From Patescibacteria group bacterium (GTDB lineage: Bacteria; Patescibacteriota; Microgenomatia; JBGSIU01), in assembly GCA_041742375.1 (NCBI GenBank), contig JBGSIU010000036.1, forward strand, positions 1-61,227: DNA of 61,227 nucleotides, in the 5' to 3' direction. The position numbers and the translations under genes are program-made. The notes beneath the pieces were generated by a model. That model searched no databases. It was not told the DNA's origin and saw only the letters and a list, made by a program, of their open reading frames with translations. Positions 23,914 to 61,227 of this stretch are shown one piece after another (positions within the stretch are counted from its first letter, which is position 1; each line of letters begins with the position of its first letter).

Positions 23914-24630
23914 ATGAAGGGGATTATTCTCGCTGGTGGTTTAGGTACTCGACTCTACCCTTTGACCTATGCCACAAATAAACATTTGCTTCCAATTTAT
24001 GACCAGCCAATGATTTTTTATCCAATTAAAACACTGGTTGATGCTGGGATAACATCAATTGCAATTGTAACTGGTGGTCCCCATGCCGGTCATTTCATGC
24101 GCGTCTTAAGGAATGGAAAAGCGCTTGGGATTAAACACTTGGAATTTTTATATCAAGAAAACGAAGGCGGCATTGCTGATGCTTTAAGACTCTGTGAAGA
24201 TTTTGCTGATAATGATAACATTGCGGTAATTTTGGGAGATAACACGACTGACATGGATATCTCTCCTCATGTAAAAAATTTTAAAACCGGAGCAATGGTT
24301 TTTTTAAAAAAAGTACCAGATCCTGAAAGATTTGGAGTGGCGGCTTTTTCTGGCGAGAAAATTGTTCATATTGATGAAAAATCAAAAAATCCAAAAAGTG
24401 ACTATGCAGTGACAGGTCTTTATATTTATGACAACAAAGTGTTTAGCTATATTCACAAAATAAAGCCTTCTGGTCGCGGGGAAATGGAAATTACAGATGT
24501 AAACAATTGCTATATCGACAATGGCAATAGCTTGCAATATACGAAGATGAAACATTATTGGTCAGATTGCGGAACTTTTGAGAGTTTATATGCTGCCAGC
24601 AAATTCTGGCACGACAAAAAGAAAATTTAA
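23914..24630 (+). CDS. rmlA: sugar-1-phosphate nucleotidyltransferase (short RmlA-like, probable glucose-1-phosphate thymidylyltransferase)
   Basis: MKGIILAGGLGTRLYPLTYATNKHLLPIYDQPMIFYPI is the RmlA-type N-terminus. Confidence 0.8.
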   Translation: MKGIILAGGLGTRLYPLTYATNKHLLPIYDQPMIFYPIKTLVDAGITSIAIVTGGPHAGHFMRVLRNGKALGIKHLEFLYQENEGGIADALRLCEDFADNDNIAVILGDNTTDMDISPHVKNFKTGAMVFLKKVPDPERFGVAAFSGEKIVHIDEKSKNPKSDYAVTGLYIYDNKVFSYIHKIKPSGRGEMEITDVNNCYIDNGNSLQYTKMKHYWSDCGTFESLYAASKFWHDKKKI

Positions 24631-24683
24631 AATTTTTAATTTAAAATTTGAAATGAAAACTAAATTTGAAAATTATAAAAATT

Positions 24684-24723
24684 GAAAATTCATTGAAAAT
24701 TAAAAATTGAAAATTGAAAATTG
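24684..24723. repeat. direct tandem (AAAATTG/GAAAATT)n tract, no complementary arm seen
   Basis: aattgaaaattcattgaaaattaaaaattgaaaattgaaaattg. The last unit supplies the TTG start of 24721. Confidence 0.7.
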
Positions 24724-25158
24724 GGACAATCGTTAATTGATAAGGTAAAAATCGAGGAATGCAAGAAAGTGCCAACTCGTGATTTAAGAGGTCAGGAGAA
24801 TGGTTTCCTTCAAGAAATGTTTGTCAAGAATGGAAAGACGCTTTGCTATCTTTCTGCAGCTCGCCCCGGGGCTTTTAAGGGTTATCATTTGCACAAAGTG
24901 CGCGCCGCCCGCTATGTTTGCGTGAAAGGCATAATGAAAGTGATTTTATATTATGATGGGAAGCGCGAAGAACACATTTTGTCCGTCGAAAATCGCAAAA
25001 GATTATACATTCCCCCAAATGTGCCAACTGGGCTTGAAAATATCGGAACTGAGGATGCCTGGCTCATTAATCTTCCTGATCCTCCATATGACCCAAATTT
25101 AAAAGATGAACAGGTGGATTATACACTTGAAGAAGTGGAAAATAATTTTATTAAATAA
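24721..25158 (+). CDS. RmlC-like cupin (NDP-4-keto-6-deoxy-sugar epimerase/isomerase family)
   Basis: 145 aa with GYHLHKVRAARYVCVKG and a cupin strand pattern, sitting among rml genes. The exact activity is not assignable. The TTG start lies inside a tandem repeat. Confidence 0.5.
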   Translation: MGQSLIDKVKIEECKKVPTRDLRGQENGFLQEMFVKNGKTLCYLSAARPGAFKGYHLHKVRAARYVCVKGIMKVILYYDGKREEHILSVENRKRLYIPPNVPTGLENIGTEDAWLINLPDPPYDPNLKDEQVDYTLEEVENNFIK

Positions 25159-25167
25159 AATTATTTT

Positions 25168-25220: not shown

Positions 25221-25230
25221 TATTTGCCCT

Positions 25231-25722
25231 ATGATTCAATGTCAATTTGAAAACGGCCGTCAAACCTTTCTTCGTCATGTGGTAGTTGATGCAATTGCTG
25301 TTAAAAATAATAAGATTCTTCTTATTAAACGTGCGATTAATTTAGTGCAAGGTGGAAAATATGCATTTCCCGGCGGATTTTTAGATCGCGACGAAACAAC
25401 TTCACAGGCAGTACTTCGTGAATTTCTTGAAGAAACTGGTTATCAAGGAAAAATAATAAGCCTTTTTCGAATAAAAGATGTTCCAAATCGTCGAGACTTT
25501 CCATCTTCAAAAGAAAAAGAAAGACAAAATGTTGGATTTTTCTTTATTGTTGAAATTGGTAAAAAGATTCAAGAAGCGGATAACGAGTCTTCGGAAGTTA
25601 AAATGTTCGATTTAGACAATCTTCCTTCTGAATCAGAATTTGCTTTTGATCATTATGAAAATATTCAATTATATTTAAAACATCTTCAAAAACCTTTTTC
25701 TCTGCCAATGTTCGGAAAATAA
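25231..25722 (+). CDS. NUDIX hydrolase
   Basis: The Nudix box GGFLDRDETTSQAVLREFLEETGY is present. Confidence 0.8.
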   Translation: MIQCQFENGRQTFLRHVVVDAIAVKNNKILLIKRAINLVQGGKYAFPGGFLDRDETTSQAVLREFLEETGYQGKIISLFRIKDVPNRRDFPSSKEKERQNVGFFFIVEIGKKIQEADNESSEVKMFDLDNLPSESEFAFDHYENIQLYLKHLQKPFSLPMFGK

Positions 25723-25750: not shown

Positions 25751-26749
25751 ATGAAACTTTTTGTGACAGGTGGCGCGGGTTTTATCGGCGCCAACTTTAT
25801 TCTCTATTGGTTAAAAAAATATCCAAACGACGAGATTGTAAATTTCGACGCGTTGACTTATGCGGGCAACCTTGAAAATCTAAAAAGCGTTGAAAAAAAC
25901 GAAAATTACAAATTTATAAAAGGTGATATCACGCGAGGAGAGGAAGTGGAAGAAGCGCTAGCGGATGATACGGATATTATCGTCCATTTTGCCGCCGAAT
26001 CCCATGTTGACCGCTCCATCGTGGGGCCTCAGAAATTTGTGTCCACAAATACGCTTGGTACCCAAGTTCTTCTTGATGCGGCAATTGCGAAAAGAATTCG
26101 TTTTCACCATATTTCAACCGATGAAGTTTTTGGTAGTTTAGAACTTGGTTCTAAAAATAAATTTAATGAAAAGACCAATTATAATCCTTCAAGCCCGTAT
26201 GCGGCGTCAAAAGCTGGATCAGATCATTTAGTGCGTGCGGCGCACCGAACCTACAATTTACCAATTACAATCACTAATTGTTCAAATAATTTTGGCCCAT
26301 TTCAATTTCCAGAAAAATTTGTGTCCCTGGCAATCACTAATTTGATTGAAGAAAAAAAAGTGCCGGTGTATGGTGACGGCTTAAATATACGCGATTGGTT
26401 ATATGTTGAAGATCACTGCGTGGCAATTGATCTTGTGATTAAACGCGGGAAAATTGGAGAAACATATTGTGTGGGCGGAATGACAAGTGATATTTCCAAT
26501 CTTGAAATTGTCAGGAAAATATTAAAAATCATGGGAAAAACAGAAGATAGTATTGAGTTTATTAAAGATAGGCCAGGACACGATAGAAAGTATGCAATCG
26601 ACTGGACAAAAATCAACAAAGAATTAGGATATAAACCACAATTCAGTTTTGACAAATATCTTGAAAAAACTGTGAAATGGTATTTTGACAATCAGGAATG
26701 GTGGAGACGTGTGAAGTCAGGCGAATATCAAAAACAAATTAATTTCTAA
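25751..26749 (+). CDS. rmlB: dTDP-glucose 4,6-dehydratase
   Basis: VTGGAGFIGANF, HFAAESHVDRS, ISTDEVFG and YAASKAG match the RmlB pattern over the full 332 aa. Confidence 0.92.
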   Translation: MKLFVTGGAGFIGANFILYWLKKYPNDEIVNFDALTYAGNLENLKSVEKNENYKFIKGDITRGEEVEEALADDTDIIVHFAAESHVDRSIVGPQKFVSTNTLGTQVLLDAAIAKRIRFHHISTDEVFGSLELGSKNKFNEKTNYNPSSPYAASKAGSDHLVRAAHRTYNLPITITNCSNNFGPFQFPEKFVSLAITNLIEEKKVPVYGDGLNIRDWLYVEDHCVAIDLVIKRGKIGETYCVGGMTSDISNLEIVRKILKIMGKTEDSIEFIKDRPGHDRKYAIDWTKINKELGYKPQFSFDKYLEKTVKWYFDNQEWWRRVKSGEYQKQINF

Positions 26750-26763: not shown

Positions 26764-26843
26764 GTCATCCCAGATGAGGCTAACGACCTCAGTCTGGGAT
26801 CCAGAACACTGAGCCTGGATTCCCGCTCGGAGGCGGGAATGAC
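26764..26843. repeat. pair of inverted GTCATCC/GTCATTCC hairpin elements between rmlB and rmlD
   Basis: gtcatcccaga-tgaggctaacgacctca-gtctgggatccag is followed by the inverted copy ctggattcccgc-tcggag-gcgggaatgac. The last ATG is the rmlD start. Confidence 0.85.
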
Positions 26844-27753
26844 AAGGAGTTGTTGTTTTAGAAATTTATATATAAATATTTTAGCAACTGGTCTTTCTGG
26901 TTTAGTCGGCACCAGAATTAAGGAATTACTTCAAGATAAATATTCTTTCACCGATCTTTCTTTTTCAACAGGTGTTGATATCACAGATGAAAAAAAAGTA
27001 AGCGAAGCTTTTTCGAAAAGTGATGCCCAATGGGTTTTACACCTGGCGGCCTTGGCCGATGTTGATAAATGCGAGACTGAAAAAGAATTGGCTTATAAAA
27101 TTAATGTTTTAGGAACGAGAAATATTGCCCAGGCATGCAAAAAATTCAATAAAAAAATAATTCATATTTCAACTGATTTTGTTTTTTCTGGAGATGAATC
27201 GTCTGAATATTTTGAAGATAGTAAAAGAAAGTCATGTAATTATTATGCCGAAACAAAGATATTGGCGGAAGACGAGGTTATGAAAACTCTAGACAAAAAA
27301 AATTGGATAATCCTGCGAATCGCGCATCCATATAAAAAATTAGTTGAAGATGAACCAAAAAAATCGTTTTTCCAACGAATGTATGAGGTGTTAAAGAATG
27401 ATCAAGAATTAAAAGCGATTGAAGATTTTTACTCTCATCCCACATTTATTGACGATATTGCAAATTCCATAGATAAGCTGATAAAATTGAACTTTTCTGG
27501 TATATATCATTGTGTTGGAGATTCTTTTTTAAGCGGAGCGGAAGAAGCGGAAATAATTTGCGAAGTTTTTAATTTTGATAAAAGCCTGATTAAAAAGATA
27601 AAACTTAATAAGTTTTTTGAAGGGCGGGCAAAAAGGCCGCATCAGTTGAACTTAAATAATGATAAAATAAAAAAAGCAACGGGAATAAAATTGCATTCAT
27701 TTCGGGAAGGGCTGTTGCAGATTAGAGAGCAAATGAAAAAAATTAATTTCTAA
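26839..27753 (+). CDS. rmlD: dTDP-4-dehydrorhamnose reductase-like SDR
   Basis: ILATGLSGLVG, HLAALADVDKCE, HISTDFVFSG and YAETKILAE match the RmlD pattern. The only canonical start is the ATG inside the upstream GC hairpin. Confidence 0.75.
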   Translation: MTRSCCFRNLYINILATGLSGLVGTRIKELLQDKYSFTDLSFSTGVDITDEKKVSEAFSKSDAQWVLHLAALADVDKCETEKELAYKINVLGTRNIAQACKKFNKKIIHISTDFVFSGDESSEYFEDSKRKSCNYYAETKILAEDEVMKTLDKKNWIILRIAHPYKKLVEDEPKKSFFQRMYEVLKNDQELKAIEDFYSHPTFIDDIANSIDKLIKLNFSGIYHCVGDSFLSGAEEAEIICEVFNFDKSLIKKIKLNKFFEGRAKRPHQLNLNNDKIKKATGIKLHSFREGLLQIREQMKKINF

Positions 27754-27857: not shown

Positions 27858-29150
27858 ATGATAATCGCGGTTATAGGTCATGGCTATGTTGGTTTAGTTT
27901 CGGCGGCGGTTTTTGCCGATCTTGGCAATACTGTTTGGTGTGTTGGCCGAGACCCTCAAAAAATTGCAAGATTAAACCAGGGAGAAACGCTTTTTTATGA
28001 GCCAGGTCTTTCCGAACTGGTAAAACGTAATCTCGCAGCCAATCGACTTAATTTCACACTTGATTATGCCCAAGCGGTAAAAGATGCTAGGGTGGTTTTT
28101 ATTTGCGTGGGGACACCGTCTTCGGAAACAGGGCATGCTGATTTAACCCAGGTTTTAAAAGTTGCGGAAAAAATTGGAGAATCAATTAAAAATAATGCGG
28201 TCGTGGTATGTAAAAGTACCGTACCTGTCGGAACTAATCGCAGGGTAGCTGAAATCATAAATTCTGTAAAAAAGAAAAATATTAAATTCTTTAGCGCTTC
28301 CTGTCCGGAATTCTTAAGAGAAGGTACGGCTCTTTCCGACACTCTCCATCCTGACCGAATCGTAATTGGGGCAGATTCAGAAGAGGCTTTTAAAGTTCTT
28401 ATTGAAGCACATAAGCCGATTGATGGCAAGCTGGTTTTAACTTCGATTGAAACCGCGGAGATGATTAAATACACGGCGAATTCATTTCTGGCGACGAAAA
28501 TTTCTTTTGCCAATGCCATTGCTGAGCTTTGTGAAAAAGTCGGGGCGGATGTGGAAAAAGTCATGGAAGGAATAGGGCTTGATAGGCGAATTGGCAGAAG
28601 ATTTTTATATCCCGGAGTAGGTTATGGCGGCAGTTGTTTCCCAAAAGATGTAAAAGCTTTAATTGCAATTGCAGAGGTGCACGGGTATAACTTTGAACTT
28701 TTAAAAGAAGTTGAAGCGATTAATAAACAAGCAGTTGCCAATTTTAATAATAAAATTAAAAAACACCTTAAAAGTCTGAAAGGAAAAAAAATAGCCGTTC
28801 TTGGGCTTGCATTTAAACCCGACACTGACGATATGAGAGAAGCTCCCTCGATTAAAATTATTAATTTCCTCCAAAAAGAAGGAGCGGAAATTTTTGCATA
28901 TGATCCAATTGCAAAGGAAACCGCTAGTCGCGTTCTCTCAAATACTCATTTTTGTGATGATATTTTTAACTGTGTGGAAAATAAGGATGCAGCAATTTTC
29001 ATCACAGAATGGAATGAGTTTAAACAGTTAGATTTGTTAGCTTTAAAGAAAAAATTAAAAACGCCGCTTGTTTTTGATGGGCGAAATATTTATGATCCGG
29101 AAAAAATGAGAAAAATGGGGTTTACTTATTATTCGGTTGGAAGGAAATAA
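27858..29150 (+). CDS. ugd: UDP-glucose 6-dehydrogenase
   Basis: IAVIGHGYVGLV, the catalytic GYGGSCFPKDV, and GLAFKPDTDDMREAP. Confidence 0.9.
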   Translation: MIIAVIGHGYVGLVSAAVFADLGNTVWCVGRDPQKIARLNQGETLFYEPGLSELVKRNLAANRLNFTLDYAQAVKDARVVFICVGTPSSETGHADLTQVLKVAEKIGESIKNNAVVVCKSTVPVGTNRRVAEIINSVKKKNIKFFSASCPEFLREGTALSDTLHPDRIVIGADSEEAFKVLIEAHKPIDGKLVLTSIETAEMIKYTANSFLATKISFANAIAELCEKVGADVEKVMEGIGLDRRIGRRFLYPGVGYGGSCFPKDVKALIAIAEVHGYNFELLKEVEAINKQAVANFNNKIKKHLKSLKGKKIAVLGLAFKPDTDDMREAPSIKIINFLQKEGAEIFAYDPIAKETASRVLSNTHFCDDIFNCVENKDAAIFITEWNEFKQLDLLALKKKLKTPLVFDGRNIYDPEKMRKMGFTYYSVGRK

Positions 29151-29273: not shown

Positions 29274-30230
29274 ATGAAAAAGAAGGCATTAATAACCGGG
29301 ATTACCGGTTTTGTCGGTAGTCATCTTGCCGAGTTTCTTTTAAGCGAAGGGCTGGAAGTTTCTGGTACTAGCCGTTGGCGAAGCAAAATGGATAATGTGG
29401 AAAAGATAAAAGATCAAATACATCTTCACGAAGCCGATCTTCTTGATGCGCATTCGATCTACCAAATTATCGATGAAATTAAACCAGATTTTATTTTTCA
29501 TTTAGCTGCTCAATCATACGTTGTTTCAAGTTGGCAGTCGCCGGCAAACACAATTGAAGTTAACACAACAGGTACGATAAATCTTTTCGAGGCGGTAAGA
29601 AAAACGGAACTTAAATGCCCGGTTCAGATCGCTTGCTCTTCAGAAGAATACGGAAAAGTTTATCCAAATGAAGTTCCGATCAAAGAGACAAATCCTTTGC
29701 GCCCGCTTTCGCCATACGCTGTTTCAAAGCTAGCAATGGATTATTTAGGTTATCAGTATCATGAAAGTTACGGGATTAATATCATAAGGACAAGAGGATT
29801 TAACCACACTGGTCCTCGTCGCGGTGAAGTTTTTGCTGAAAGTACGTTTGCTAAACAAATTGCCGAAATTGAAAAAAAGAAGAAAGAACCAGTGGTTTTC
29901 GTTGGAAATCTAGAAGCAAAACGTGATTATACTGACGTTCGCGATATGGTTAAAGCATATTATTTGGCTGCGCAAAAATGTGAACCAGGGGAAGTATATA
30001 ACATTTGCACCGGCCGTGCATGGTCGATAGGCGATGTGCTTAAGCATCTTATTAAACTTTCAAAGGTTAAAATTCAAGTTAAAAAAGATCCCGCGCGTAT
30101 GCGGCCATCCGATGTACCGATACTTTTGGGAGACAATTCAAAATTTGTCGCCAAAACAGGTTGGAAACCAGAAATTCCGTTTGAAAAAACACTTGAAGAC
30201 TTATTAAATTATTGGCGAGAAAAAGTATAA
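29274..30230 (+). CDS. Gmd/Rmd-family SDR (GDP-mannose 4,6-dehydratase or GDP-4-keto-6-deoxymannose reductase-like)
   Basis: ITGITGFVGSHLAEFLL, SPYAVSKL, FNHTGPRRGEVF, GNLEAKRDYTDVRD and LLGDNSKFVAKTGWKPEI. At 318 aa it is the short form. Confidence 0.72.
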   Translation: MKKKALITGITGFVGSHLAEFLLSEGLEVSGTSRWRSKMDNVEKIKDQIHLHEADLLDAHSIYQIIDEIKPDFIFHLAAQSYVVSSWQSPANTIEVNTTGTINLFEAVRKTELKCPVQIACSSEEYGKVYPNEVPIKETNPLRPLSPYAVSKLAMDYLGYQYHESYGINIIRTRGFNHTGPRRGEVFAESTFAKQIAEIEKKKKEPVVFVGNLEAKRDYTDVRDMVKAYYLAAQKCEPGEVYNICTGRAWSIGDVLKHLIKLSKVKIQVKKDPARMRPSDVPILLGDNSKFVAKTGWKPEIPFEKTLEDLLNYWREKV

Positions 30231-52455: not shown

Positions 52456-53268
52456 ATGCAAGTAAGTATTGTTATCCCAAATTACAATGGTCTTGAAAAT
52501 TTAAAAAGAAACCTTCCTAAAGTGATCGAAGCCACGGAGGGTTTTTCTGAAGAGACAGAAATTGTTGTTGTGGATGATGCGTCAAATGATAAAAGCGTAG
52601 ATTTTCTCCAGAGTGAACAGTTGAAGAGGTTGACGGTGATTCCCAATAAGAAGAATGTTGGTTTTGCAGAAGGTTGTAATGTTGGGGTAAAAAACGCTAA
52701 GGGAGAAATTGTAGTCCTCTTAAATTCGGATGTATACCCCGAGATAAACTTTCTTAAATATCTTATGCCGCACTTTCAAGATGAAAAAGTTTTTGCCGTT
52801 AGTTGTTTGGAGAAAACTTTGAATGAAGAAGATGAGATTATCGGAGAACGCGGCGCAGGGAAGATCTTTTTTAAAGACGGGCTTTATCAGCACTCGGCCG
52901 GTGATTTGAATTCACGTGAAACCGACTGGGTATGCGGTGGGTCCGGCGCTTTCAGGAGGAGTATTTTCCTCAAGCTTGGTGGATTTGACAAAAATTTCGC
53001 ACCTTTTTACTGGGAAGACGTTGACTTGTCATACCGCGCCAAAAAGGCAGGCTATAAATTGCTATTTGAGAAAAGATCAATTGTTTACCACAAACACACG
53101 GAAGGTGCAATTAAGAAAAAATATTCTAAACAACAAATTGAAAAGATATCGTTTGCAAACCAGCTGAAGTTCACCAGAAAGCATGTTAATTCAGTAAGCC
53201 AGTTTGCCGATTTTACTATTTTTCTACTCAAATTTTATTTGAAGAAAATTTTTGCGAAAGACATATGA
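52456..53268 (+). CDS. GT2 glycosyltransferase
   Basis: VSIVIPNYNG, VVDDASNDKS, NVGFAEGCNVG, LLNSDV and WEDVDLSYR. Confidence 0.8.
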   Translation: MQVSIVIPNYNGLENLKRNLPKVIEATEGFSEETEIVVVDDASNDKSVDFLQSEQLKRLTVIPNKKNVGFAEGCNVGVKNAKGEIVVLLNSDVYPEINFLKYLMPHFQDEKVFAVSCLEKTLNEEDEIIGERGAGKIFFKDGLYQHSAGDLNSRETDWVCGGSGAFRRSIFLKLGGFDKNFAPFYWEDVDLSYRAKKAGYKLLFEKRSIVYHKHTEGAIKKKYSKQQIEKISFANQLKFTRKHVNSVSQFADFTIFLLKFYLKKIFAKDI

Positions 53269-55232
53269 AAGATATAATAGTAAAACAAAAAACCAAGGCA
53301 ATAATTTTATTCTTCCTGATAATTTCCCTGCTTCCTTTTTGGAAATATTTTATAAAAAGAGAAATCCCGTTTAACGGTAATTATCTGGTTTCCACTTATG
53401 AACCGTTTAAAACGGACACAGCTAAAAAATTTCCCAACGGTTTGCCGTCAAAACCATATTTTGACGATCAATTGCGGCAATATTTTCCCTATCTTGAATT
53501 CACGAGGCGAAGCTTTGTTAAAGGTGAATTTCCCGCTTGGAATCCATATCAATTCTCCGGGGTTCCCTTTGCCGCCAATTGGCAAACCGCGATATATTTC
53601 CCAACAAAAATTCTCTTGTTTTTTATGAGCACCGCCGATTATTGGAGTGTCACGCGGATGATCCCGTTTTTTCTCTGTCTGGTTTTTTCTTTTCTGTATT
53701 TCAAAACTTTAAAATTTAAAACCATATCGTCGGTTTTTGGAGGCGTCCTATACGCGTTTTCCGGAACCTTTATCACCTATTCGCAGGAAACCATATACAA
53801 CGATTATATTTTTGCATCTCTTCCTTTGTCTCTCATGGCTCTTGAAAAATATTGGCAGGCAGAACAAAAGCGGTATTTATTTGTTCTGTTTTTTGCGTTG
53901 CTGTTATCCATCTTAGCCGGTTTTATCCAGCAAGCTTTTTATCTTTTTTCTTTCGTTATCCTATATTTTGTCTGCAAGTTATTTGCTCAAAAAGGCGCCG
54001 TGAGAAATAAACAGAAACGAAACATGGCAATTTTTGCCACGATTGCATTATCCGTCATACTTTCTCTTCCTTTTCTTATCCCCGGATTTGAATTCTATAA
54101 TCTCTCGGCAAGAAAATTTGCCGATTATACGCCGCAGATTAAAGAATACCTTTTGCCGTATTATTCTTTTTTCACATTTTTTTTCCCCGACTTTCTTGGA
54201 AATCCCGGAACCAGAAATTGGTTTGGATTTAATATCGGCGCATATGACGAGCGTGCAGTTTGGATTCCGTCGGTGTTTGTGGTTTTTTTCATATATTTTA
54301 TGATTGATTATTTATTTGGTAAGAAAAATGAATCTTTATCCAAATTTTTCCTCGGGAGTTTCATGCTGACACTTGTTTTTATTTTCAGAAATCCAGTTTC
54401 GTATTATATCGTGTCGATGAAAGTTCCGGTTGTGGGAACCGCCATGTTCAATCGGCTGATTTTTCTCAACACATTTTCTCTTGTTTTTTTGACGGTGGTC
54501 GGATTTGAAAAAGTAATCTTTGAACGAATTAAAGTTATTAAAATGTTTTTTGCGTTGACTGTCACCGCGGGAATAATTTTAACCTCTTTTCTCTATGCGA
54601 AATATTTTTCACTGGCGCCGTATTCGGGCGAGTTGTCAAAAAATCTCATTTCTCAAAGAAACATGATCTTTCCGGCCATCTCAATCTTATTCTCGCTCGT
54701 GATCGTTTATTCTTATAAAATTTCGAAAAAACCGCAAATATTATCATTAATCATTGCTCTTGGATTTCTACAAAGCTTATATTTTTTTGACAAATATGTT
54801 CCTTTTTCCGAAAGGAAATATTTTTATCCGGAAAATCCTTTAATAAAATATCTCAAGCGAGAATCGCAAAAAAGCGCATGCCGGGTGTATTTTCTTGATG
54901 AAAATTTGGAATATGTATTTAATGATCTGGCAACTTTTTACGAGATTCCCGTAATTTCGGGTTATGATCCTCTAAATTACAAAAAATACAATGACCTTTT
55001 GTTTTATCTTGAGCATCCGAAAACCGAAGTGAATAACCGGCGCTACGATGCTGGTCTGGCAAATCTGACCATAAATTTTGATGAAAAAATGAAAATGTTC
55101 AAAACCTATGATGTTTGTTTGGTGGTTACCCTTGCCGGTGAAAAAAAACGATACGATCCAGAATTCCCCGATCTTTTTCAGAAAACATATCAATATGAAA
55201 AATTTGAAGTTTGGAAAAGAAGATTATTTTAA
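53265..55232 (+). CDS. YfhO-like polytopic membrane protein (GT-C candidate)
   Basis: DDQLRQYFPYLEFTRRSFVKGEFPAWNPYQFSGVPFAANWQTAIYFP. ATGA overlap with the upstream GT2. Confidence 0.65.
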   Translation: MKDIIVKQKTKAIILFFLIISLLPFWKYFIKREIPFNGNYLVSTYEPFKTDTAKKFPNGLPSKPYFDDQLRQYFPYLEFTRRSFVKGEFPAWNPYQFSGVPFAANWQTAIYFPTKILLFFMSTADYWSVTRMIPFFLCLVFSFLYFKTLKFKTISSVFGGVLYAFSGTFITYSQETIYNDYIFASLPLSLMALEKYWQAEQKRYLFVLFFALLLSILAGFIQQAFYLFSFVILYFVCKLFAQKGAVRNKQKRNMAIFATIALSVILSLPFLIPGFEFYNLSARKFADYTPQIKEYLLPYYSFFTFFFPDFLGNPGTRNWFGFNIGAYDERAVWIPSVFVVFFIYFMIDYLFGKKNESLSKFFLGSFMLTLVFIFRNPVSYYIVSMKVPVVGTAMFNRLIFLNTFSLVFLTVVGFEKVIFERIKVIKMFFALTVTAGIILTSFLYAKYFSLAPYSGELSKNLISQRNMIFPAISILFSLVIVYSYKISKKPQILSLIIALGFLQSLYFFDKYVPFSERKYFYPENPLIKYLKRESQKSACRVYFLDENLEYVFNDLATFYEIPVISGYDPLNYKKYNDLLFYLEHPKTEVNNRRYDAGLANLTINFDEKMKMFKTYDVCLVVTLAGEKKRYDPEFPDLFQKTYQYEKFEVWKRRLF

Positions 55233-56915
55233 AGTTTTTTCTATTAATCCAAGTTTAATAAGCTGTGATAATATTTCTTCTTTCCGCGATTTATCGAAAT
55301 TAAAACTTTGGGCAAGATTAAAATTAATTGTGTCACCGATTTTCCATTTGTACTCATACTTTTTATCCGACTTATCGAGATCAATAAGTCGAAAATAATT
55401 CTTGTCTAAATAGTCAGTGAAGAAATAATTAAAATCATGGGCGATGCCGCCCCAGGGAGCGTAGTCTCTTTGAAAAACAATAACTTTGGCTTTATTTTTT
55501 TCAAAATCACCAATCATTTCGTCTTTGATTTTGGAAGTTGCCGCATGTTGGAGGAACCAATGATAGCGTGAGGGCATTTTTGCATTGAGGTAGAGGATTT
55601 CTTTAAATTCAAAGGGTCCGACCCATGCATAGTCATTTTTATCCGCGATCAGGTTGACAACTGATGCGATCTGGGGGCGATTGTAAATCAGAGGTGCCTC
55701 GCCCATGTATTTCTTATAGAATTTTTGCATGGAATTTAAACCCAAATACGAATAAGCAAAAAGGGAATGAACCAATAAAATAATCAGCATGAACGAAGCG
55801 ATGATTTTTTCCGACAAACGGTTTTCAACGTGATTAATGAAGTTGCGTAAAAAATATATTGCCGTCACGCCGTTAAAAAAAGCAAGCATGGTATAAACGC
55901 TGGACTGGTAGTCCGTTTCGTCAACGCCGACCGGATTACTGCGTGCGCAGGCGAAGGCTAAACAGAAGATAACGAAAATTGCCGCGGAAAATTGTCTTGA
56001 AATAATAAGAAAAATGATTATGGCTAAATTTGAAGCGGTAAGGAGCGGGATAATTGAGTTTGAAGGATTTAGATCTTTTAAAAAGCCCAGCGCCGAAAAA
56101 AAGTTATTGAAGAAGGTCATGGCAATTGTGATGGCATAGCGCATTGGATTCACTGCTTTTCCGATTTCATGTGCGGCGTTGTAAATATAATAATTTTGGT
56201 TATATGTAAAAGCCGCGAAATAATAGTCTCTTAAACTTCCGGTGATAAGCAAAAATATCAAGAAAATGATATATGGCGGCAGCATCATTTTGGCAATAGC
56301 TAAGACAGAGCGGGAAAAAGGGACATGATTTTTGGCGCTTTTTAAGAAGAGATATATCGCAAATAGATTAATACCGATGACTAAATAAATGTATGTCATT
56401 GATGTCCACCAGGCGAAAAATGTAAAAAGATTTGTGATGAATAAATCTTTGGCGTCAAATTTTTCATGCAAAACCAACTTTAGTAAAACCAGCGCATATG
56501 CAGGAATGAGTAAATATGCGGAGAGAGTGTCGGCAAGGAGCATTTGCCACCAGAAGAAGGTGCCGGCGATTGCCACGAAAAAAATAAAAACGAGATAAAA
56601 ATTCAGGTTAATTTTGTTATACGCAAGCCTTCTCTTCAGAACAAAATAACCGCTTATATTTATCAGAAAAAACACGATGGCTAAAATAATTCTGAATTTA
56701 ACAAAATTAATTCCGGAAAAAGGAAGAATAAGAGCTGAGAGAACATATGCCCCCGGTTGATGATGCTGGAACCAATCACGGTATGGAACTTTACCTTGGG
56801 CAATAAATTTCCCGCCGACAATGCTGTCGTATTCATCCGGATATTCTTCATGAAAAGTATTAACAAAAAAAATCGCAAAGATGATTAAGAACGCGATGAA
56901 GAGTGTTTTTTTCAT
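55224..56915 (-). CDS. polytopic GT-C-like membrane protein
   Basis: 563 aa with first loop EEYPDEYDSIVGGKFIAQGKVPYRDWFQHHQP. It overlaps the convergent gene 53265..55232 by 9 nt. Confidence 0.5.
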   Translation of the reverse strand: MKKTLFIAFLIIFAIFFVNTFHEEYPDEYDSIVGGKFIAQGKVPYRDWFQHHQPGAYVLSALILPFSGINFVKFRIILAIVFFLINISGYFVLKRRLAYNKINLNFYLVFIFFVAIAGTFFWWQMLLADTLSAYLLIPAYALVLLKLVLHEKFDAKDLFITNLFTFFAWWTSMTYIYLVIGINLFAIYLFLKSAKNHVPFSRSVLAIAKMMLPPYIIFLIFLLITGSLRDYYFAAFTYNQNYYIYNAAHEIGKAVNPMRYAITIAMTFFNNFFSALGFLKDLNPSNSIIPLLTASNLAIIIFLIISRQFSAAIFVIFCLAFACARSNPVGVDETDYQSSVYTMLAFFNGVTAIYFLRNFINHVENRLSEKIIASFMLIILLVHSLFAYSYLGLNSMQKFYKKYMGEAPLIYNRPQIASVVNLIADKNDYAWVGPFEFKEILYLNAKMPSRYHWFLQHAATSKIKDEMIGDFEKNKAKVIVFQRDYAPWGGIAHDFNYFFTDYLDKNYFRLIDLDKSDKKYEYKWKIGDTINFNLAQSFNFDKSRKEEILSQLIKLGLIEKTLK

Positions 56916-56945: not shown

Positions 56946-58676
56946 TTAATTGTTAGGTATGATTTTCTCCACCCATTGATCCGTGGCAATTATCAAAGCC
57001 TCTTTTCCGTTCGGGTAATAAATTGATTTGACCGTGTTTAGAGTTCGGACCAAGTTGTGTTTGTTGTCGACGGCTTTTATGATAATCGGTTGAAAATCTT
57101 CCGGCCAGGCGACGATTAATATGTCACCGTTGCCATTAATATCTTTTTGATCGAAAAGGATAAATTCATATTTATCAAAGCTTTCATTGGCGCGAAAGTC
57201 ACCGGATTTTGTACCTTTATCTACGTATAAGTATGTTGCCGGATCATACTTGGAATAGAAAAGCCAATGCATGTATTGCCAGTCGGTCCGGTTATTCGAA
57301 ATCAATACTTTTTTATATTTATTTTTAACCGATTCGGTATATGCAACAGCTTCTTTTTTTCCATAAAACCAGTCTTTCGCATATTCATAATTCAAGTGCA
57401 CATAATACTGGTGCAGATATGCGGAGAAGGCCCAGCAAAAACAAGCAGTCAATAAAAGATAATATGTGCCTCGATATAAATTGGTGCGCCATTTATTCAC
57501 AATCCACGCTCCGGTATAAATAATCCCGATTGCGGTAAACAGTTGCATTAACGGTAGGACAATAAGGGAGCGAACTGACGAAGGGGCCTGCACGACAAGT
57601 GCCGCGGGGACAAAAGATAATAAAAACCAAATGATAATAAATAAATTGTTTCGGCAGCGCAGATATTTTAAATAACAGAAGATGCCAATCAGGGAAAAAA
57701 ACGGTTCAAAAAATAATATCAAACCAAAATCGGGCGCATGATACATTTTGTTTATATCTCCATGAAAGTAAAAATCAGGATTGAAATGCGAGAGGTAGCT
57801 TAAAAGAAATTTTTTGACATCGGTATAATTAAGCATGAGGAAACGGCGATTATGAAAAATTTTTGCGGAATATGAGAGGCCTTCATTGGATTCCCGCAGG
57901 ATCGTGTTTGTTGAATCACTAATTTGTTGCTCCAGATTAAAAATGTTCATGGTGGTAAATCTCATTTGGATTTCTTTCGAACTCCCAAACGGCAAAAAAA
58001 GTAATATAAAAACACCAAAAACCGCAAGGGAGATCAGAGACAATCGTTTTGTCAGTAGTAACTGTTTGTAGTTTGTAAACATGAGAAATATAAGTATTAA
58101 GGGCGAAACAATTTTCGCCGAGTGGTATGTGAACAACGTTAAGCCGAAAAGAAAAAAAGAGACAACCAGCAAATAGTTGTTTTTCCTTAGTCCTCTGAGA
58201 AAACAAAGAATCGCGGCAACATTCAGCATCGTGGCCACATTGGCTTCAAATGCACCTCTTGAAAATTGAAGATGCCAGGGGGAAACTGATAGTAAAAAAG
58301 AAACCAAAATCGCAATTTTTTGTTTTTTGTTTGTATTTCTGAACACTTCACTTATTAAAAAATACGAAAGCAGAATTGTCGCGATGCCGGCAATGGCCGA
58401 AGGTAAGCGGACGGCGAACGCGTTCAAACCAAATGCTTTAATTGAGGTTATGGAAAGATATACGTAGAGAGGCATTTTATAATCATTGGTTGAGCGGAAT
58501 GTCAAAGGCATGGAGGCGCCGAACTGGTCCCGCCCGGTTTTCAAAACAGAATATGCGTCATAACCGATGGCTGCCTCATCGAGATTGACGCTTCCCGGAA
58601 CGGTGCCAAGCTTATAAAATCGCAGCAGTATGGAAAAAATCGCGATCGCCACCAAGATGACTCTAATTTTATTCAT
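56946..58676 (-). CDS. PMT/ArnT-family (GT39-like, PMT_2) polytopic glycosyltransferase
   Basis: LRFYKLGTVPGSVNLDEAAIGYDAYSVLKTGRDQFGASMPLTF. Confidence 0.8.
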   Translation of the reverse strand: MNKIRVILVAIAIFSILLRFYKLGTVPGSVNLDEAAIGYDAYSVLKTGRDQFGASMPLTFRSTNDYKMPLYVYLSITSIKAFGLNAFAVRLPSAIAGIATILLSYFLISEVFRNTNKKQKIAILVSFLLSVSPWHLQFSRGAFEANVATMLNVAAILCFLRGLRKNNYLLVVSFFLFGLTLFTYHSAKIVSPLILIFLMFTNYKQLLLTKRLSLISLAVFGVFILLFLPFGSSKEIQMRFTTMNIFNLEQQISDSTNTILRESNEGLSYSAKIFHNRRFLMLNYTDVKKFLLSYLSHFNPDFYFHGDINKMYHAPDFGLILFFEPFFSLIGIFCYLKYLRCRNNLFIIIWFLLSFVPAALVVQAPSSVRSLIVLPLMQLFTAIGIIYTGAWIVNKWRTNLYRGTYYLLLTACFCWAFSAYLHQYYVHLNYEYAKDWFYGKKEAVAYTESVKNKYKKVLISNNRTDWQYMHWLFYSKYDPATYLYVDKGTKSGDFRANESFDKYEFILFDQKDINGNGDILIVAWPEDFQPIIIKAVDNKHNLVRTLNTVKSIYYPNGKEALIIATDQWVEKIIPNN

Positions 58677-58739
58677 ATTATTTAAACATATTGTATCAAG
58701 AATTTAATCGATGGTGATAAAATCTTAATATACAAGCAA

Positions 58740-60350
58740 ATGAAAATTAAAATCATCATATTCCTAATTATACTCTTATCTCTTTTTCTAAGATTCTATC
58801 GGGGCGATCAAAGTCCGGGTTCTCTTTATTGGGATGAAGTCTCGATTGGATATAACGCGTATTCTGTTCTCCAAACAGGGAAAGACGAGTGGGGGAGAAT
58901 AATTCCATGGTTTTTTGAAGCTTTTGGTGAGTTTAAATTTCCGGCGGCGATATATTTAACGGTGATTCCCATTAAAATTTTTGGCCTCACCGATTTTGCC
59001 GTGCGCTTTCCCAGCGCACTCTTTGGTGGTTTATCGGCTTTGATGATATATTTTTTGGGAATGCAAATTTTTCAAAAGAGAAAAATCGCGCTTCTCTCGG
59101 CTTTTTTGTTTTGCATTTCTCCCTGGAGCATCCAATTTTCAAGAGCCATGTTTGAGTCGAATCTCGCGGTTCTTTTCCTGATTGCGGCGTTGTATTTTTT
59201 ATTTCTGATCCTTAAAAAAAATACTTTCATTCGTGTTTTTTGTTATCTTGCCTCATCTTTCTTTTGCATTTATTCATATGCCACGATGCTGGTTGTTCTT
59301 CCACTGCTTACAGTTTTGACTGTTTTTGTATTTACTCCACATAAAATCACGGAAAAGATTAAAAGAACATTCCTGCTATCGATAATTATTCTTCCGTTAT
59401 ATATCCCTTTCGTGCTGCATGTTCAACAGGATTCGTATTTGAGGTTTAATCAGGTTTCAATTTTTTCACAAAATCCCGTTCTTGAAAAGGTAATCAATCT
59501 CCGAGCACAATACGGCGGGATAAGTAAGATTATTTTAAATCAATACTCGGCCGCTTTGATTAATTTCGGAAAAAATTTTATCGATCACATTAATCCTCAA
59601 TTTTTGTGGCCCGGAAAAGATGGTAATCCGCGTCATTACAATGGTTTTGGTCTGATATATCCAATCGAATTCATTTTTTTGCTGGCGGGGACCATATTCC
59701 CGTTCTTATCAAAAAGAAAAATTGCGGTATATTTGATTATTTTTTTTATGATTCCTCTTGCCGTGAGTTCTTTCACTAAGGATTCTCCGCACGCCCTGCG
59801 ATCGCTGAGCTGTGTTATTCCTGTAAGCTTAATTGCGGCCGAGAGGATTTCTTTCTTGTTAAAAAAGAAAATAACGAAAATTTTGACAATTTTTGCCTAC
59901 CTGATTCTCATAAATTTTTATCTTGTGAAATATTATGACAATTCACGTCAAACATTTTCCGCTTGGGGAATGGAAAATAAACTGATGATGCAGGAGGCAA
60001 AAAAAATAAACTTAAAAAATAAAACCGTATATTTCACGGGAGATTATTGGCGGCCGTATATTTATTATTATTTTTATTATAAAATTGATCCGTCGTTTGT
60101 CATGAGAAATAATAATTCCACGAGAATCGGAAATGTCTGGTTTGGTTATGCCAAATGGGATAAGGCCGACAGAAGATATGATTTTAATTTTAAACCGGAA
60201 AATTTATTTTCAAAAAAGAATCCGGTTCTATTTTTATCCGCGAGCGAAAAAACATTTTTTTCAAAACAACTCACTCAGAATAACATATGTCTAGACCGCG
60301 ATTATTATTTTAATGATCGCTATCTGTTTTCAATATATGAAAAAAAATAA
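58740..60350 (+). CDS. PMT/ArnT-family (GT39-like, PMT_2) polytopic glycosyltransferase
   Basis: LRFYRGDQSPGSLYWDEVSIGYNAYSVLQTGKDEWGRIIPWFFEAFGEFK. Confidence 0.8.
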   Translation: MKIKIIIFLIILLSLFLRFYRGDQSPGSLYWDEVSIGYNAYSVLQTGKDEWGRIIPWFFEAFGEFKFPAAIYLTVIPIKIFGLTDFAVRFPSALFGGLSALMIYFLGMQIFQKRKIALLSAFLFCISPWSIQFSRAMFESNLAVLFLIAALYFLFLILKKNTFIRVFCYLASSFFCIYSYATMLVVLPLLTVLTVFVFTPHKITEKIKRTFLLSIIILPLYIPFVLHVQQDSYLRFNQVSIFSQNPVLEKVINLRAQYGGISKIILNQYSAALINFGKNFIDHINPQFLWPGKDGNPRHYNGFGLIYPIEFIFLLAGTIFPFLSKRKIAVYLIIFFMIPLAVSSFTKDSPHALRSLSCVIPVSLIAAERISFLLKKKITKILTIFAYLILINFYLVKYYDNSRQTFSAWGMENKLMMQEAKKINLKNKTVYFTGDYWRPYIYYYFYYKIDPSFVMRNNNSTRIGNVWFGYAKWDKADRRYDFNFKPENLFSKKNPVLFLSASEKTFFSKQLTQNNICLDRDYYFNDRYLFSIYEKK

Positions 60351-61227
60351 AAATTACCCTGTTCTAATAATTGCCTTATTATTATTTGGATTTGCGGCGC
60401 GGGTTTTCCGCATTAATGAAAGATTAATTTTCTTTTATGATCAGGCATGGATTTCACAAAAAATATACGATCTGGTACTGAAACATGATTTCAAACTTGT
60501 CGGCTTTGCAACGGATTTGCCGGGGGTGTTCAGCGGCCCGCTTTTATTTTACCTTTTTGCGCCGATTTACTATCTGTCGCATTTTAATGTCGTTGCGCCG
60601 GCGATTTTTTGCATTTTGGCAAATTTACTTTGCGGCATTTTGCTGTTTGAATTCTGCCGTGTGCTTTTTAAGAATAAAAAAATCAGTCTGTTGGCGCTTT
60701 TGTTTTGGACGGTTTCCTTTGCCGAGCTTAATTTTTCCAAGCTCATAGGGATTTGTAGTTTTGTCCCCGTTTTTGTCACGCTGTTTTATTTAGGTTTAGC
60801 CATGTACATTTTTCAAAAAAAGGAAAAGGGGTTAATGCTAAGCGCCGTGGGCTATGCCTTGGCGTTCCAACTGAATCCTTATCTAATTTATCTGGGGATT
60901 TTTTATCCGATTTTATATTCTATCCATCATGTCAAGGTGAAATGGCGGACAATTGCAATCAGTGCGGCCGTCTTTATCGCCCTCTCGATTAATTACTACC
61001 TTGCCGAGATAAAATGGAATTTTTCAGGAACAAAAAGTTTGCTTAAATATTTAGTCGGACAGACGGGCTCAAGTCCGGTGGCCGACAATATGGCCGCGTA
61101 TCTGCAAAAAATGACGGAAAGCGTCTATTATTCATTTTTTTCTTTTAATATGTTCTTCGCTTTTTTGATTTTTGTTTTACTTCTCATATATGTTTTTAAA
61201 ACATGCAAGCAGAAAAAAGAAATGATA
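60337..61227 (+). CDS. partial (3'-truncated by the window edge) polytopic GT-C-like membrane protein; not in the ORF track
   Basis: My own translation from ATG 60337 runs for 297 codons with no stop to the last base: MKKNKNYPVLIIALLLFGFAARVFRINERLIFFYDQAWISQKIYDLVLKHDFKLVGF... It resembles the N-terminus of 32277..33755 and overlaps the previous gene by 14 nt. Confidence 0.55.
   Translation, partial: MKKNKNYPVLIIALLLFGFAARVFRINERLIFFYDQAWISQKIYDLVLKHDFKLVGFATDLPGVFSGPLLFYLFAPIYYLSHFNVVAPAIFCILANLLCGILLFEFCRVLFKNKKISLLALLFWTVSFAELNFSKLIGICSFVPVFVTLFYLGLAMYIFQKKEKGLMLSAVGYALAFQLNPYLIYLGIFYPILYSIHHVKVKWRTIAISAAVFIALSINYYLAEIKWNFSGTKSLLKYLVGQTGSSPVADNMAAYLQKMTESVYYSFFSFNMFFAFLIFVLLLIYVFKTCKQKKEMI

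Follow-up and report, generated by a model that had tools for sequence, protein, structure and literature searches.

The locus examined here raises the question of what a bacterium of the candidate phyla radiation (CPR) builds with fourteen large polytopic membrane proteins that are encoded, in a single region, among genes for the activation and transfer of sugars. Specifically, the locus is the ~37-kb island at positions 23914-61227 of contig JBGSIU010000036.1 (assembly GCA_041742375.1, a Patescibacteria group bacterium of the Microgenomatia). The whole stretch of DNA analyzed, 61,227 nt in length, is referred to as the window; its right edge is the contig end, and its first 23.5 kb are filled by housekeeping genes, among them those for SecDF, SerRS, SecA, peptide deformylase, DinB, MgsA, RF2, and FtsEX. 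An earlier sequence-only reading of the window had described almost every gene of the island as glycan-related, a description borne out by the family assignments of 30 genes. The interpretation favored here, to which we assign a probability of roughly 55%, is that the island is the main cell-surface glycosylation locus of its host, consisting of an expanded GtrA/GtrB/GT-C system together with a Wzx branch, and that the acceptor is most likely a surface glycoprotein and/or a wall-linked glycopolymer.

Much of the evidence for this interpretation comes from the fourteen polytopic proteins, the open reading frames (ORFs) of which sit at the coordinates that the sequence-only reading had given for them. 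Families were assigned by a Pfam scan of the window's 50 ORFs with 120 or more amino acids, using the Pfam gathering and NCBIfam equivalog cut-offs as score thresholds; the gathering cut-offs most relevant here are 26.1 bits for PMT_2, 22.7 bits for PMT (PF02366), and 28.5 bits for YfhO. The fourteen proteins, each with ~6-15 hydrophobic segments, total 7,387 amino acids and take up ~22 kb of a 29-kb stretch that runs from 32277 to 61227. They comprise eight ArnT/PMT-like (PMT_2) proteins, three YfhO-type proteins, one MptA/GT87-like protein, and two members of a family designated here as family D:

32277..33755, + strand: PMT_2-type GT-C of group B, first-loop motif GDQGRD (PMT_2 38.5 bits)
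35283..36932, + strand: PMT/PMT_2-type GT-C of group A with DE motif (PMT_2 41.6 bits, PMT 25.4 bits; alignment A1)
36929..38062, + strand: MptA/GT87-like GT-C of 377 amino acids (TIGR03459, E 1.8e-9, 37 bits against a cut-off of 439)
38033..39511, - strand: PMT/PMT_2-type GT-C of stand-alone type, motif TDEAMY (PMT_2 63.7 bits, PMT 43.2 bits)
39618..41309, + strand: YfhO/PTPS_related GT-C, motif HDDLQIQR (YfhO 40.3 bits against 28.5; PTPS_related 36.7 bits)
42732..44441, + strand: PMT/PMT_2-type GT-C of group A (PMT_2 44.8 bits, PMT 32.3 bits)
45390..47051, + strand: PMT_2-type GT-C of group A (PMT_2 35.8 bits)
48926..50905, + strand: YfhO-type GT-C of group C without a direct Pfam match (PF09586-carrying homologs; homolog profile)
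50924..52444, + strand: family D GT-C-like protein, a divergent paralog with motif DEED (family D profile built without the window sequences, E 6e-13 over residues 6-456)
53265..55232, + strand: YfhO-type GT-C of group C without a direct Pfam match (29% identical to 48926; homolog profile)
55224..56915, - strand: family D GT-C, motif DEYD (AlphaFold model and Foldseek; no Pfam, NCBIfam, or PDB sequence match)
56946..58676, - strand: PMT_2-type GT-C of group A (PMT_2 39.8 bits)
58740..60350, + strand: PMT/PMT_2-type GT-C of group A (PMT_2 43 bits, PMT 29.5 bits)
60337..61227, + strand: PMT_2-like GT-C of group B, cut by the contig end (PMT_2 21.9 bits, under the cut-off of 26.1)

An acidic motif, in the form DE, DQ, D..Q, or DExD, lies straight after the first transmembrane segment in all fourteen. 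Together, profile matches, hidden Markov models (HMMs) built from homologs, and AlphaFold (AF2) models compared by Foldseek provide GT-C evidence for every one of these proteins, as the sequence-only reading had proposed, and none is transporter-like.

The ArnT/PMT-like proteins are the most readily classified, as PMT_2 scores exceed the cut-off in seven of them (32277, 35283, 38033(-), 42732, 45390, 56946(-), and 58740). PMT (PF02366) is also over its cut-off in 35283, 38033(-), 42732, and 58740, each of which carries the loop-1 DE motif; among the 14 polytopic proteins no Pfam match was found to the PMT_4TMC or MIR domains. Five of the ArnT/PMT-like proteins (35283, 42732, 45390, 56946(-), and 58740) are 25-33% identical to one another over their full length and constitute group A. 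Their alignment, A1, contains invariant L18 R19 F20, P27, D33 E34, and Y42, demonstrating that the first-loop string that the sequence-only reading had noticed in five proteins is real. The truncated 60337 protein is a paralog of 32277 (BLASTP E 3.7e-15; 29% identity), and its orthologs in relatives, which are 69-90% identical, extend to a full length of 532-540 amino acids. The stand-alone protein 38033(-) found no match in a PDB sequence search and scores 15 bits against the ArnT equivalog NF009784, the cut-off of which is 567.

Assignment of the remaining proteins required less direct evidence. Searches of five unassigned proteins against Pfam and NCBIfam at E-values up to 10 returned only noise, except for the MptA match of 36929, and two-sequence alignments of group C and group D compared with group A, which make shallow profiles, gave probabilities of 67% and 0.6%, respectively. 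Group C has 1,922 homologs, among which those ~44% identical carry PF09586 and go under the name YfhO family at NCBI; with an HMM made exclusively from PF09586-carrying homologs, the E-value is 6e-223 for 48926 and 9e-93 for 53265. With 39618, these bring the YfhO-type proteins to three, one more than the two originally recognized. An AF2 model of 48926 (pLDDT 82.5) has two credible PDB matches only, AftA, which is the best, and PIGU. Both are structural homologs of PimE; AftA belongs to the GT-C_A class, while PIGU shares the fold and is placed outside the GT-C family (PMC12041525). The likeness of 36929 to MptA is apparent at the family level only, and a 65%-identical ortholog of this protein in a relative carries PF26314 (MptA_B_family).

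The two family D proteins, 50924 and 55224(-), had been listed by the sequence-only reading without a class of their own, and are here found to represent a separate family that is without a model in the databases searched. Neither has a direct Pfam or NCBIfam match, a Pfam search of 51 family members produced none, and comparison of the family D profile with PDB sequences yielded only chance matches to GABA receptors. Similarly, the 145 homologs that share sequence words with family D are all unnamed CPR proteins, and an exhaustive profile search extends the family to 2,191 cluster representatives at E ≤ 1e-3. The AlphaFold model of 55224(-) has a pLDDT of 93.4 and a pTM of 0.91. In a Foldseek comparison with the PDB, its 13 top-ranking matches are to PglB, STT3, AglB, Pmt4, ArnT, EmbA, and the GT-C-like PIGU; Emb, Pmt1/2, and AftD follow lower down, and the probability is 1.00 for most matches. 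Invariant residues D27, E28, and D30 stand straight after the first transmembrane segment. Taken together, the model predicts that family D adopts a GT-C fold in which a multi-helix core is joined by an acidic motif in the first loop and by a C-terminal domain on the outer side.

What family D uses as a donor is suggested by its distant members. Of 48 such proteins, nine carry an N-terminal GtrA_DPMS_TM domain (Pfam, best E 2e-26) and one matches PMT_2, and phmmer comparison of distant family D N-termini with the GtrA domain of 31183, described below, gives E-values down to 1.6e-9. Such fusion of a GtrA domain to a GT-C ties family D directly, at the genomic level, to polyprenyl-phosphate-monosaccharide donors. 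Assignment of family D as an oligosaccharyltransferase (OST) was considered and not adopted, since the fusions point to monosaccharide donors and the Foldseek E-values for Pmt4 and ArnT (1e-3 to 4e-3) lie near those for the OSTs (1.6e-4). The representatives in which the GtrA fusion was seen are P0421, P0425, P0428, P0435, P0459, and P0502. Distant members of ~670-760 amino acids have extra N-terminal domains, which in P0416, P0417, and P0419 are of other kinds, and some distant members bear a ~200-residue soluble domain after a signal-like segment.

Interspersed with the GT-C genes are those for the soluble glycosyltransferases and a flippase:

31183..32295, + strand: DPMS-type GT2 fused to a GtrA/DPMS transmembrane domain, putative polyprenyl-phosphate-sugar synthase (Glycos_transf_2 E 7e-26; C-terminal GtrA_DPMS_TM E 6e-18)
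33756..34511, + strand: soluble DPMS/GtrB-like GT2, probable polyprenyl-phosphate-sugar synthase (5mlz E 2e-17; GtrB 5ekp E 1e-15)
34504..35220, + strand: soluble DPMS-like GT2, probable polyprenyl-phosphate-sugar synthase (5mlz E 2e-8, its sole PDB match)
41272..42735 (start 41293 in the earlier list), + strand: Wzx-type MOP flippase (Polysacc_synt_3 E 2e-46)
44449..45393, + strand: Leloir GT2, weakly GlfT2-like, with a GC-rich in-frame insert of 23 amino acids (profile and PDB sequence matches)
47061..47816, + strand: GT2 with its strongest similarity to GmaR (E 1.3e-24) and to SunS-type enzymes (E 4e-11), which glycosylate proteins and peptides
47884..48942, + strand: GT4, Glycos_transf_1 (PF00534 E 3e-14)
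52456..53268, + strand: Leloir GT2 with generic PDB matches only (Glycos_transf_2 E 7e-24)

Comparison with solved structures and with equivalog families suggests that 31183, 33756, and 34504 are probably polyprenyl-phosphate-sugar synthases, in agreement with the sequence-only reading. The nearest solved relative of each is the dolichyl-phosphate mannose synthase (DPMS) of Pyrococcus furiosus (5mlz), followed by GtrB or ArnC; for 31183 the match to 5mlz spans residues 3-326 at E 4e-35, and ArnC is matched as well. The top NCBIfam matches are PgfS, ArnC, and AglJ for 33756 and dolichyl-phosphate-hexose transferase and AglJ for 34504; for the three proteins as a group they are PgfS, AglJ, dolichyl-phosphate-hexose transferase, ArnC, and PpgS, all of which are lipid-phosphate-sugar synthases and all of which score under their equivalog cut-offs. 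The GtrA-family component of the window consists solely of the domain fused to 31183.

The identities proposed earlier for the further GT2s (44449, 47061, and 52456), for the GT4 (47884), and for the Wzx-type flippase were likewise confirmed by profile matches, with NCBIfam models for MOP flippases and O-glycosylation flippases giving ~100 bits, under their cut-offs, for 41272. The likeness of 47061 to GmaR, the flagellin O-GlcNAc transferase of Listeria, and to SunS-type enzymes, which are peptide S-glycosyltransferases, hints at a cytoplasmic protein-glycosylating step within the island. The array is packed in an operon-like manner; four of the GT2 and GT4 genes overlap the GT-C gene that follows by 4-19 nt (31183 by 19 nt, 44449 by 4 nt, 47884 by 17 nt, and 52456 by 4 nt).

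Upstream of these genes is a block devoted to sugar nucleotides:

23914..24630, + strand: RmlA-like glucose-1-phosphate thymidylyltransferase (NTP_transferase E 4e-55; TIGR01207 rmlA 234 bits, under the equivalog cut-off)
24721..25158, + strand: FdtA/WxcM-type cupin, similar to isomerases/epimerases of nucleoside-diphosphate (NDP)-4-keto-6-deoxy-sugars (PF05523 38.4 bits, cut-off 23)
25231..25722, + strand: NUDIX hydrolase within the sugar-nucleotide block (PF00293 E 1e-18)
25751..26749, + strand: RmlB, dTDP-glucose 4,6-dehydratase (TIGR01181 461 bits against an equivalog cut-off of 365)
26839..27753, + strand: RmlD-like reductase (RmlD_sub_bind E 1e-59; TIGR01214 185 bits against a cut-off of 224)
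27858..29150, + strand: UDP-glucose 6-dehydrogenase, Ugd/TuaD-like (three UDPG_MGDP_dh domains; TIGR03026 471 bits against a cut-off of 190)
29274..30230, + strand: Gmd-like NDP-hexose 4,6-dehydratase of the short-chain dehydrogenase/reductase (SDR) type (GDP_Man_Dehyd E 4e-89; TIGR01472 212 bits, under the cut-off)
30238..31176, + strand: UXS/ArnA-C-like SDR, probable UDP-glucuronate decarboxylase (NF008872 108 bits and ArnA C-terminal half 105 bits, both under their cut-offs)

The NDP-sugar genes named by the sequence-only reading stand with respect to RmlA, RmlB, the RmlD-like reductase, Ugd, and the Gmd-like and UXS/ArnA-C-like SDRs. The cupin, which had been called RmlC-like, is instead of the FdtA/WxcM type: profile searches gave no match to the RmlC family, and its weak PDB sequence matches are to the C-terminus of Cap5F and to a WxcM-like protein. 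The NUDIX gene at 25231 had been overlooked.

Investigations of the window for the classical components of polysaccharide export support the earlier statement that they are missing, in that models for phosphoglycosyl transferases (PGTs; PF00953 and PF02397), Wzy_C, Wzz, O-antigen ligase/WaaL, and LCP found no match in the 50 window ORFs. Wzy sequences diverge so strongly that profile searches may miss them; with regard to Wzy and WaaL, every polytopic protein of the window falls in a GT-C family. As the island is cut by the contig end, its right border was sought in three relatives, namely GCA_040961665.1 (a 1.03-Mb contig with orthologs ~41-70% identical) and two metagenome contigs with family D proteins at 86-87% identity; when the final complete protein of the window was looked up exactly, the sole match was a 3.6-kb contig stopping at the same base. 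In all three relatives the island runs on past the equivalent of 60337 with more PMT_2-type genes, which in GCA_040961665.1 number four, among them those for proteins of ~500, 525, and 490 amino acids, and the full island probably contains ~17-18 GT-C genes. It ends in GCA_040961665.1 with genes for an SDR epimerase, an Mrr nuclease, a GT2, a type IIG restriction-modification enzyme, and a Dam-like methylase, and the 10 kb past this end contain no initiating PGT. Neither the window nor the sequence past the right end in relatives thus encodes a recognizable initiator, Wzy, Wzz, or ligase, and the canonical gene set that, lying just past the window, would have refuted the sequence-only reading did not turn up there. 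The presence of Wzx, a GT4, and Leloir GT2s implies a branch, underweighted in the sequence-only reading, that makes a lipid-linked oligosaccharide, and an initiator for it would therefore be encoded elsewhere. In GCA_040961665.1 the defense-gene patch (12452-21470 of locus L069) directly adjoins variable glycosylation genes.

The island is not peculiar to this genome. When one genome per GTDB species was scanned with the family D profile, 63 loci were recovered, and the named records among them belong to Gottesmanbacteria, Roizmanbacteria, Levybacteria, or "Patescibacteria group" with three exceptions: weak outliers assigned to Saccharibacteria and "Eubacteriales," and one record titled Acidiferrales. 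Homologs of the island proteins are similarly confined, nearly all being found in Levy-, Gottesman-, and Roizmanbacteria and other Patescibacteria, which places the host in the Microgenomates group of the CPR. ORFs called in each locus were sorted by similarity to the annotated window proteins, revealing a median of 7 and a maximum of 12 polytopic GT-C-like genes per ~21 kb and, over all loci, 185 PMT_2-like, 117 YfhO-like, 134 GT2, and 22 GT4 genes. A Pfam census of 164 neighboring proteins left unclassified by this procedure (65 polytopic and 99 soluble), of which the 25 commonest families were listed, contained among the polytopic proteins 11 Wzx-type, 8 GT87, 4 PIG-V, 4 PMT_2, 3 DUF2079, and 3 acyltransferase_3 matches, and among the soluble proteins 30 GT4 and 16 methyltransferase matches. 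Wzy_C and Bac_transf are not among the families listed for these 164 proteins. The sole Glycos_transf_4 match is probably MraY, because Mur-ligase and FtsW/RodA matches occur with it in the same census. Judged by the families listed, PGT and Wzy are clearly not regular components of these islands.

Two further observations were made on these loci. In L004-L020 and similar Gottesmanbacteria-type loci a soluble protein of ~287-300 amino acids (~9000-9950) is always encoded just upstream of family D; this may be a SAM methyltransferase involved in sugar methylation, methyltransferases accounting for 16 of the 99 soluble neighbors. In addition, loci such as L004, L005, L008, and L013 are titled "uncultured Gammaproteobacteria bacterium" and share their gene order with, and are 35-52% identical to, Gottesman- and Levybacteria loci; these titles look like placeholder or wrong taxonomy.

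Conservation within the island is uneven. In the relatives with 86-87% identity, counterparts of individual GT-C proteins are identical as follows:

55224..56915, - strand: family D, 86-87%
53265..55232, + strand: 85%
60337..61227, + strand: 77-90%
56946..58676, - strand: 60-74%
58740..60350, + strand: 44%, to the positional counterpart

Gene content also varies among close relatives through gains and losses, and GCA_040961665.1, which is without 42732, 45390, 50924, and 53265, has three other GT-C genes instead. This pattern fits a conserved core with a diversifying periphery, as in surface-antigen loci.

These data can be assembled into a proposed pathway. In a first step, the first eight genes would supply a dTDP-6-deoxyhexose (RmlA, RmlB, the FdtA-type cupin, and the RmlD-like reductase), UDP-glucuronate (Ugd), a UDP-pentose or 4-keto-pentose (the UXS/ArnA-C-like SDR), and another 6-deoxyhexose (the Gmd-like SDR). 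The three DPMS/GtrB/ArnC-like GT2s would then charge polyprenyl phosphate with single sugars at the inner face of the membrane, and the lipid-linked sugars would be flipped to the outer face. There, as fold and motifs suggest, the GT-C array, with 14 members here, would transfer the sugars outside the membrane. In parallel, the three Leloir GT2s, the GT4, and Wzx would build and flip a lipid-linked oligosaccharide, with the PGT encoded elsewhere. The conserved enzymes (family D, 53265, 60337, 38033(-), and 36929) may make a common core to which the strain-variable ArnT/PMT-like paralogs add variable outer residues. In a bolder and distinctly more doubtful version of this proposal, the product is a complex, lipoarabinomannan (LAM)-like surface glycan or a heavily glycosylated protein coat, built nearly entirely outside the membrane from few polyprenyl-phosphate-sugars by ~18 clustered GT-Cs including family D, a strain-variable subset of which writes a "glycan code" for host attachment or phage evasion in epibiotic, ultra-small cells.

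Candidate acceptors are encoded at the left border of the island, which reads, in order, FtsEX, a coiled-coil peptidase-like protein, two proline/threonine-linker proteins with carbohydrate-binding modules (CBMs), a CAP-domain protein, and RmlA:

19530..22655, + strand: two CBM_4_9-type proteins, secreted or anchored, in which Pro/Thr linkers are long (CBM_4_9 matches; PT-richness 0.73 in 30-residue windows)

The first of these, 19530, consists of a signal peptide, a CBM-like domain, a Pro/Thr stalk of ~90 amino acids, and a C-terminal membrane anchor, while in 20517 a Pro/Thr linker of ~45 amino acids precedes the CBM_4_9 domain. Support for considering 19530 and 20517 as a lead to the O-glycosylation acceptors can be found in Cellulomonas and Corynebacterium, in which GT-39 enzymes that require the DE motif attach as many as 65 hexoses to CBM proteins bearing Ser/Thr linkers (PMC11727336).

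Several points weigh against the proposed surface glycosylation locus. The donors and acceptors of the pathway, the sequence of its steps, and flipping are inferences throughout, and a number of assignments are at the family level only, far under equivalog cut-offs (MptA, 37 bits against 439; ArnT, 15 bits). The TM-scores of the structural comparisons are modest: family D reaches ~0.37-0.44 with its OST, Pmt4, and ArnT matches, and the YfhO-type model reaches 0.32 with its best match, AftA. Within the window there is no stand-alone GtrA flippase gene and there are no genes for GDP-mannose supply (ManB/ManC), and no initiator for the Wzx branch was found in the window or past the right island end in the relative. 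Finally, of the loci examined, only two, the window and L040, have Pro/Thr-rich proteins adjoining the island.

Other explanations must be weighed against the same data. It is possible, if rather doubtful, that the GT-Cs do not cooperate at all and that each one independently decorates a different acceptor or position, in the style of GtrC or YfhO, with one sugar drawn from about three lipid-phosphate-sugar pools; pilins, S-layer or linker proteins, and teichoic-like polymers would be the acceptors, and the array would represent a serotype-type diversity cassette. To our knowledge, the known YfhO, GtrC, and GacL enzymes are all single-sugar decorators, and the presence of only three synthase-like GT2s alongside 14 GT-Cs, the variability of the ArnT/PMT-like paralogs, which exceed all others among close relatives in both sequence and presence, and the restriction-modification genes flanking the island in the relative, which suggest a variable region, are all as such a cassette would have it. 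Yet a median of 7 GT-Cs per locus is kept across ~60 species, the MptA-like protein is of a polymerizing type, and the group A paralogs, being 25-33% identical, are old rather than recent duplicates. With respect to whether the GT-Cs act sequentially, as in the synthesis of mycobacterial lipomannan and LAM (PMC12041525) and in the assembly line envisaged by the sequence-only reading, or in parallel, we lean towards a mixed picture.

A conventional Wzx/Wzy-type locus, in which Leloir GT2s, the GT4, and Wzx make a repeat-unit polysaccharide, one or more GT-C-like proteins serve as polymerase or ligase, the initiator lies elsewhere, and the other GT-Cs are accessory, appears improbable. It would account for Wzx, the GT4, and the three Leloir GT2s, for the further Wzx and many GT4 proteins of related islands, and for the top structural matches of family D to PglB, STT3, and AglB, which transfer en bloc; moreover, streptococcal and mycobacterial wall-polysaccharide systems have their initiator encoded outside the cluster. 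Against it stand the negative searches for Wzy_C, Wzz, WaaL, and PGT in the 50 window ORFs and in the families listed for the 164 neighbors, as well as the GtrA fusions of family D with their implication of monosaccharide-phosphate-lipid donors, and the Foldseek E-values for OSTs and for Pmt4/ArnT are too close to discriminate. Least credible of all is a reading in which the head group of a membrane lipid or lipoglycan is modified in the manner of the Arn pathway, so as to alter surface charge and confer resistance to antimicrobial peptides. Ugd, the UXS/ArnA-C-like SDR, ArnC among the PDB matches of the GT2s, and PMT_2 proteins of the ArnT superfamily are all present, but ArnB, the ArnA formyltransferase domain, ArnD, and ArnE/F were not found among the window ORFs, the ArnT equivalog reaches 15 bits where 567 are required, and 14 GT-Cs would be left unexplained. 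CPR bacteria, so far as we know, also lack lipid A. The surface glycosylation locus with its expanded GT-C array and Wzx branch is consequently preferred.

A number of side observations concern the window and its borders. After FtsE and FtsX comes, within 16623-19516, a secreted protein whose N-terminal part forms a long coiled coil and whose C-terminus carries a Peptidase_C39_2-like domain, a layout resembling that of the FtsEX-controlled cell-wall hydrolases PcsB, CwlO, and RipC with a different catalytic domain. The CAP/SCP-domain protein with a C-terminal membrane anchor (22695-23829 region) marks the left island edge in the window and also in two Levybacteria-type loci, L040 and L054; in the window its gene is followed 3' by one for a three-helix membrane protein of 87 amino acids (23566-23829). 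Horizontal acquisition of the island was rejected: the window has a GC content of ~35%, and the island, at 0.32-0.38, equals the housekeeping part. Short stretches of 60-68% GC nevertheless occur in this 35% GC genome at 2767-2889, 44562-44685, and 49585-49663 (intragenic) and at 26775-26849 (intergenic), and fold as hairpins with DNA fold z-scores of -3.2 to -6.1. Three of them lie in frame within genes, those for Ham1, the GT2 44449, and the YfhO-type 48926, and in 44449 the stretch encodes 23 extra amino acids that are missing from a 62%-identical ortholog. These stretches look like miniature palindromic insertions tolerated in frame, comparable to the Rickettsia palindromic elements. No convincing evidence of phase variation was obtained, the candidates being four 9-nt A/T runs and one C8 run, the latter inside the in-frame insert, and no RNA was found by Rfam and tRNA scans.

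An island that takes up ~4% of a ~1-Mb genome and is conserved across a class points to a major surface glycoconjugate. This matters in the CPR, the members of which have genomes of ~1 Mb and depend on other cells, and the surface chemistry of which is little known. Families of membrane proteins that are overrepresented in Microgenomates and largely hypothetical have been reported in a study the main text of which does not contain the terms glycosyl- or mannosyl- (Méheust et al., 2019; PMC6744442), and the island may account for some of these families. Public annotation already names many of the genes "glycosyltransferase family 39 protein" or "YfhO family protein," and a limited literature search found no earlier description of this type of island. 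Further work can take hold of the locus at several points: the three putative lipid-sugar synthases, family D as a conserved GT-C family still without annotation, and the two proteins proposed as acceptors.

How, then, does the island compare with known systems? The suggestion of the sequence-only reading that the system may be undescribed is not established, as the same kind of island is present in ~60 Microgenomates-group genomes and its logic matches that of both the three-component and the mycobacterial GT-C systems. Three-component systems include CsbB-GtcA-YfhO, which glycosylates teichoic acids in Bacillus and Listeria, GacI/GacL of group A Streptococcus, and PgfS/PgfM of S. mutans. The island appears to share with GtrA/GtrB/GtrC the combination of a DPMS/GtrB-like GT2, a GtrA-family domain, and polytopic GT-Cs of YfhO or PMT_2 type; consistent with this, PgfS is the top NCBIfam match for two window GT2s, and family D occurs fused to GtrA. 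Unlike them, it contains 14-18 GT-Cs of five types per locus rather than one, has GtrA only as a GT2-fused domain, includes a Wzx/GT4/Leloir-GT2 branch in the same array, and resides in a CPR host of ~1 Mb.

In mycobacteria, a complex glycan is assembled outside the membrane by many GT-Cs that draw on few lipid-phosphate-sugar donors (PMC12041525). The same pattern, with few putative donors for many GT-Cs, is seen in the island and in the mycobacterial and corynebacterial enzymes for phosphatidylinositol mannosides, lipomannan, LAM, and arabinogalactan (Ppm1 with PimE, MptA/B/C, Emb, and Aft), and further likenesses are suggested by the MptA-family-like 36929 and by AftA as best structural match of the YfhO-type model. 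In contrast to the mycobacterial set, the genes are clustered rather than scattered, the GT-Cs are mostly of ArnT/PMT_2 and YfhO types, and MptA scores 37 bits against 439; the window polytopic proteins gave no Pfam or NCBIfam match to Emb/Aft arabinosyltransferase domains or the decaprenyl-phosphate-arabinose pathway. Protein O-mannosylation by GT39 PMT enzymes in Actinobacteria and fungi is resembled by the four proteins with PF02366 over the cut-off and a DE motif, invariant in A1, which the GT-39 enzyme of C. glutamicum needs (PMC11727336), and by the neighboring CBM proteins with Pro/Thr linkers, which are like the heavily mannosylated CBM-linker proteins of Cellulomonas. The island differs in having many paralogs instead of one, in lacking a PMT_4TMC or MIR match, and in the absence of GDP-mannose supply genes from the window. 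From the Arn pathway come parallels to Ugd, a decarboxylase-like SDR, an ArnC-like GT2, and ArnT-superfamily GT-Cs, whereas ArnB, the formyltransferase domain, ArnD, and ArnE/F are missing from the window and equivalog cut-offs are not reached. Every component other than family D thus falls in a described family, and the island is a known mechanism expanded rather than a new one; what sets it apart is the dense occurrence of five GT-C types in one operon-like array of a ~1-Mb genome, the conservation of this array across a class of the CPR, and family D itself.

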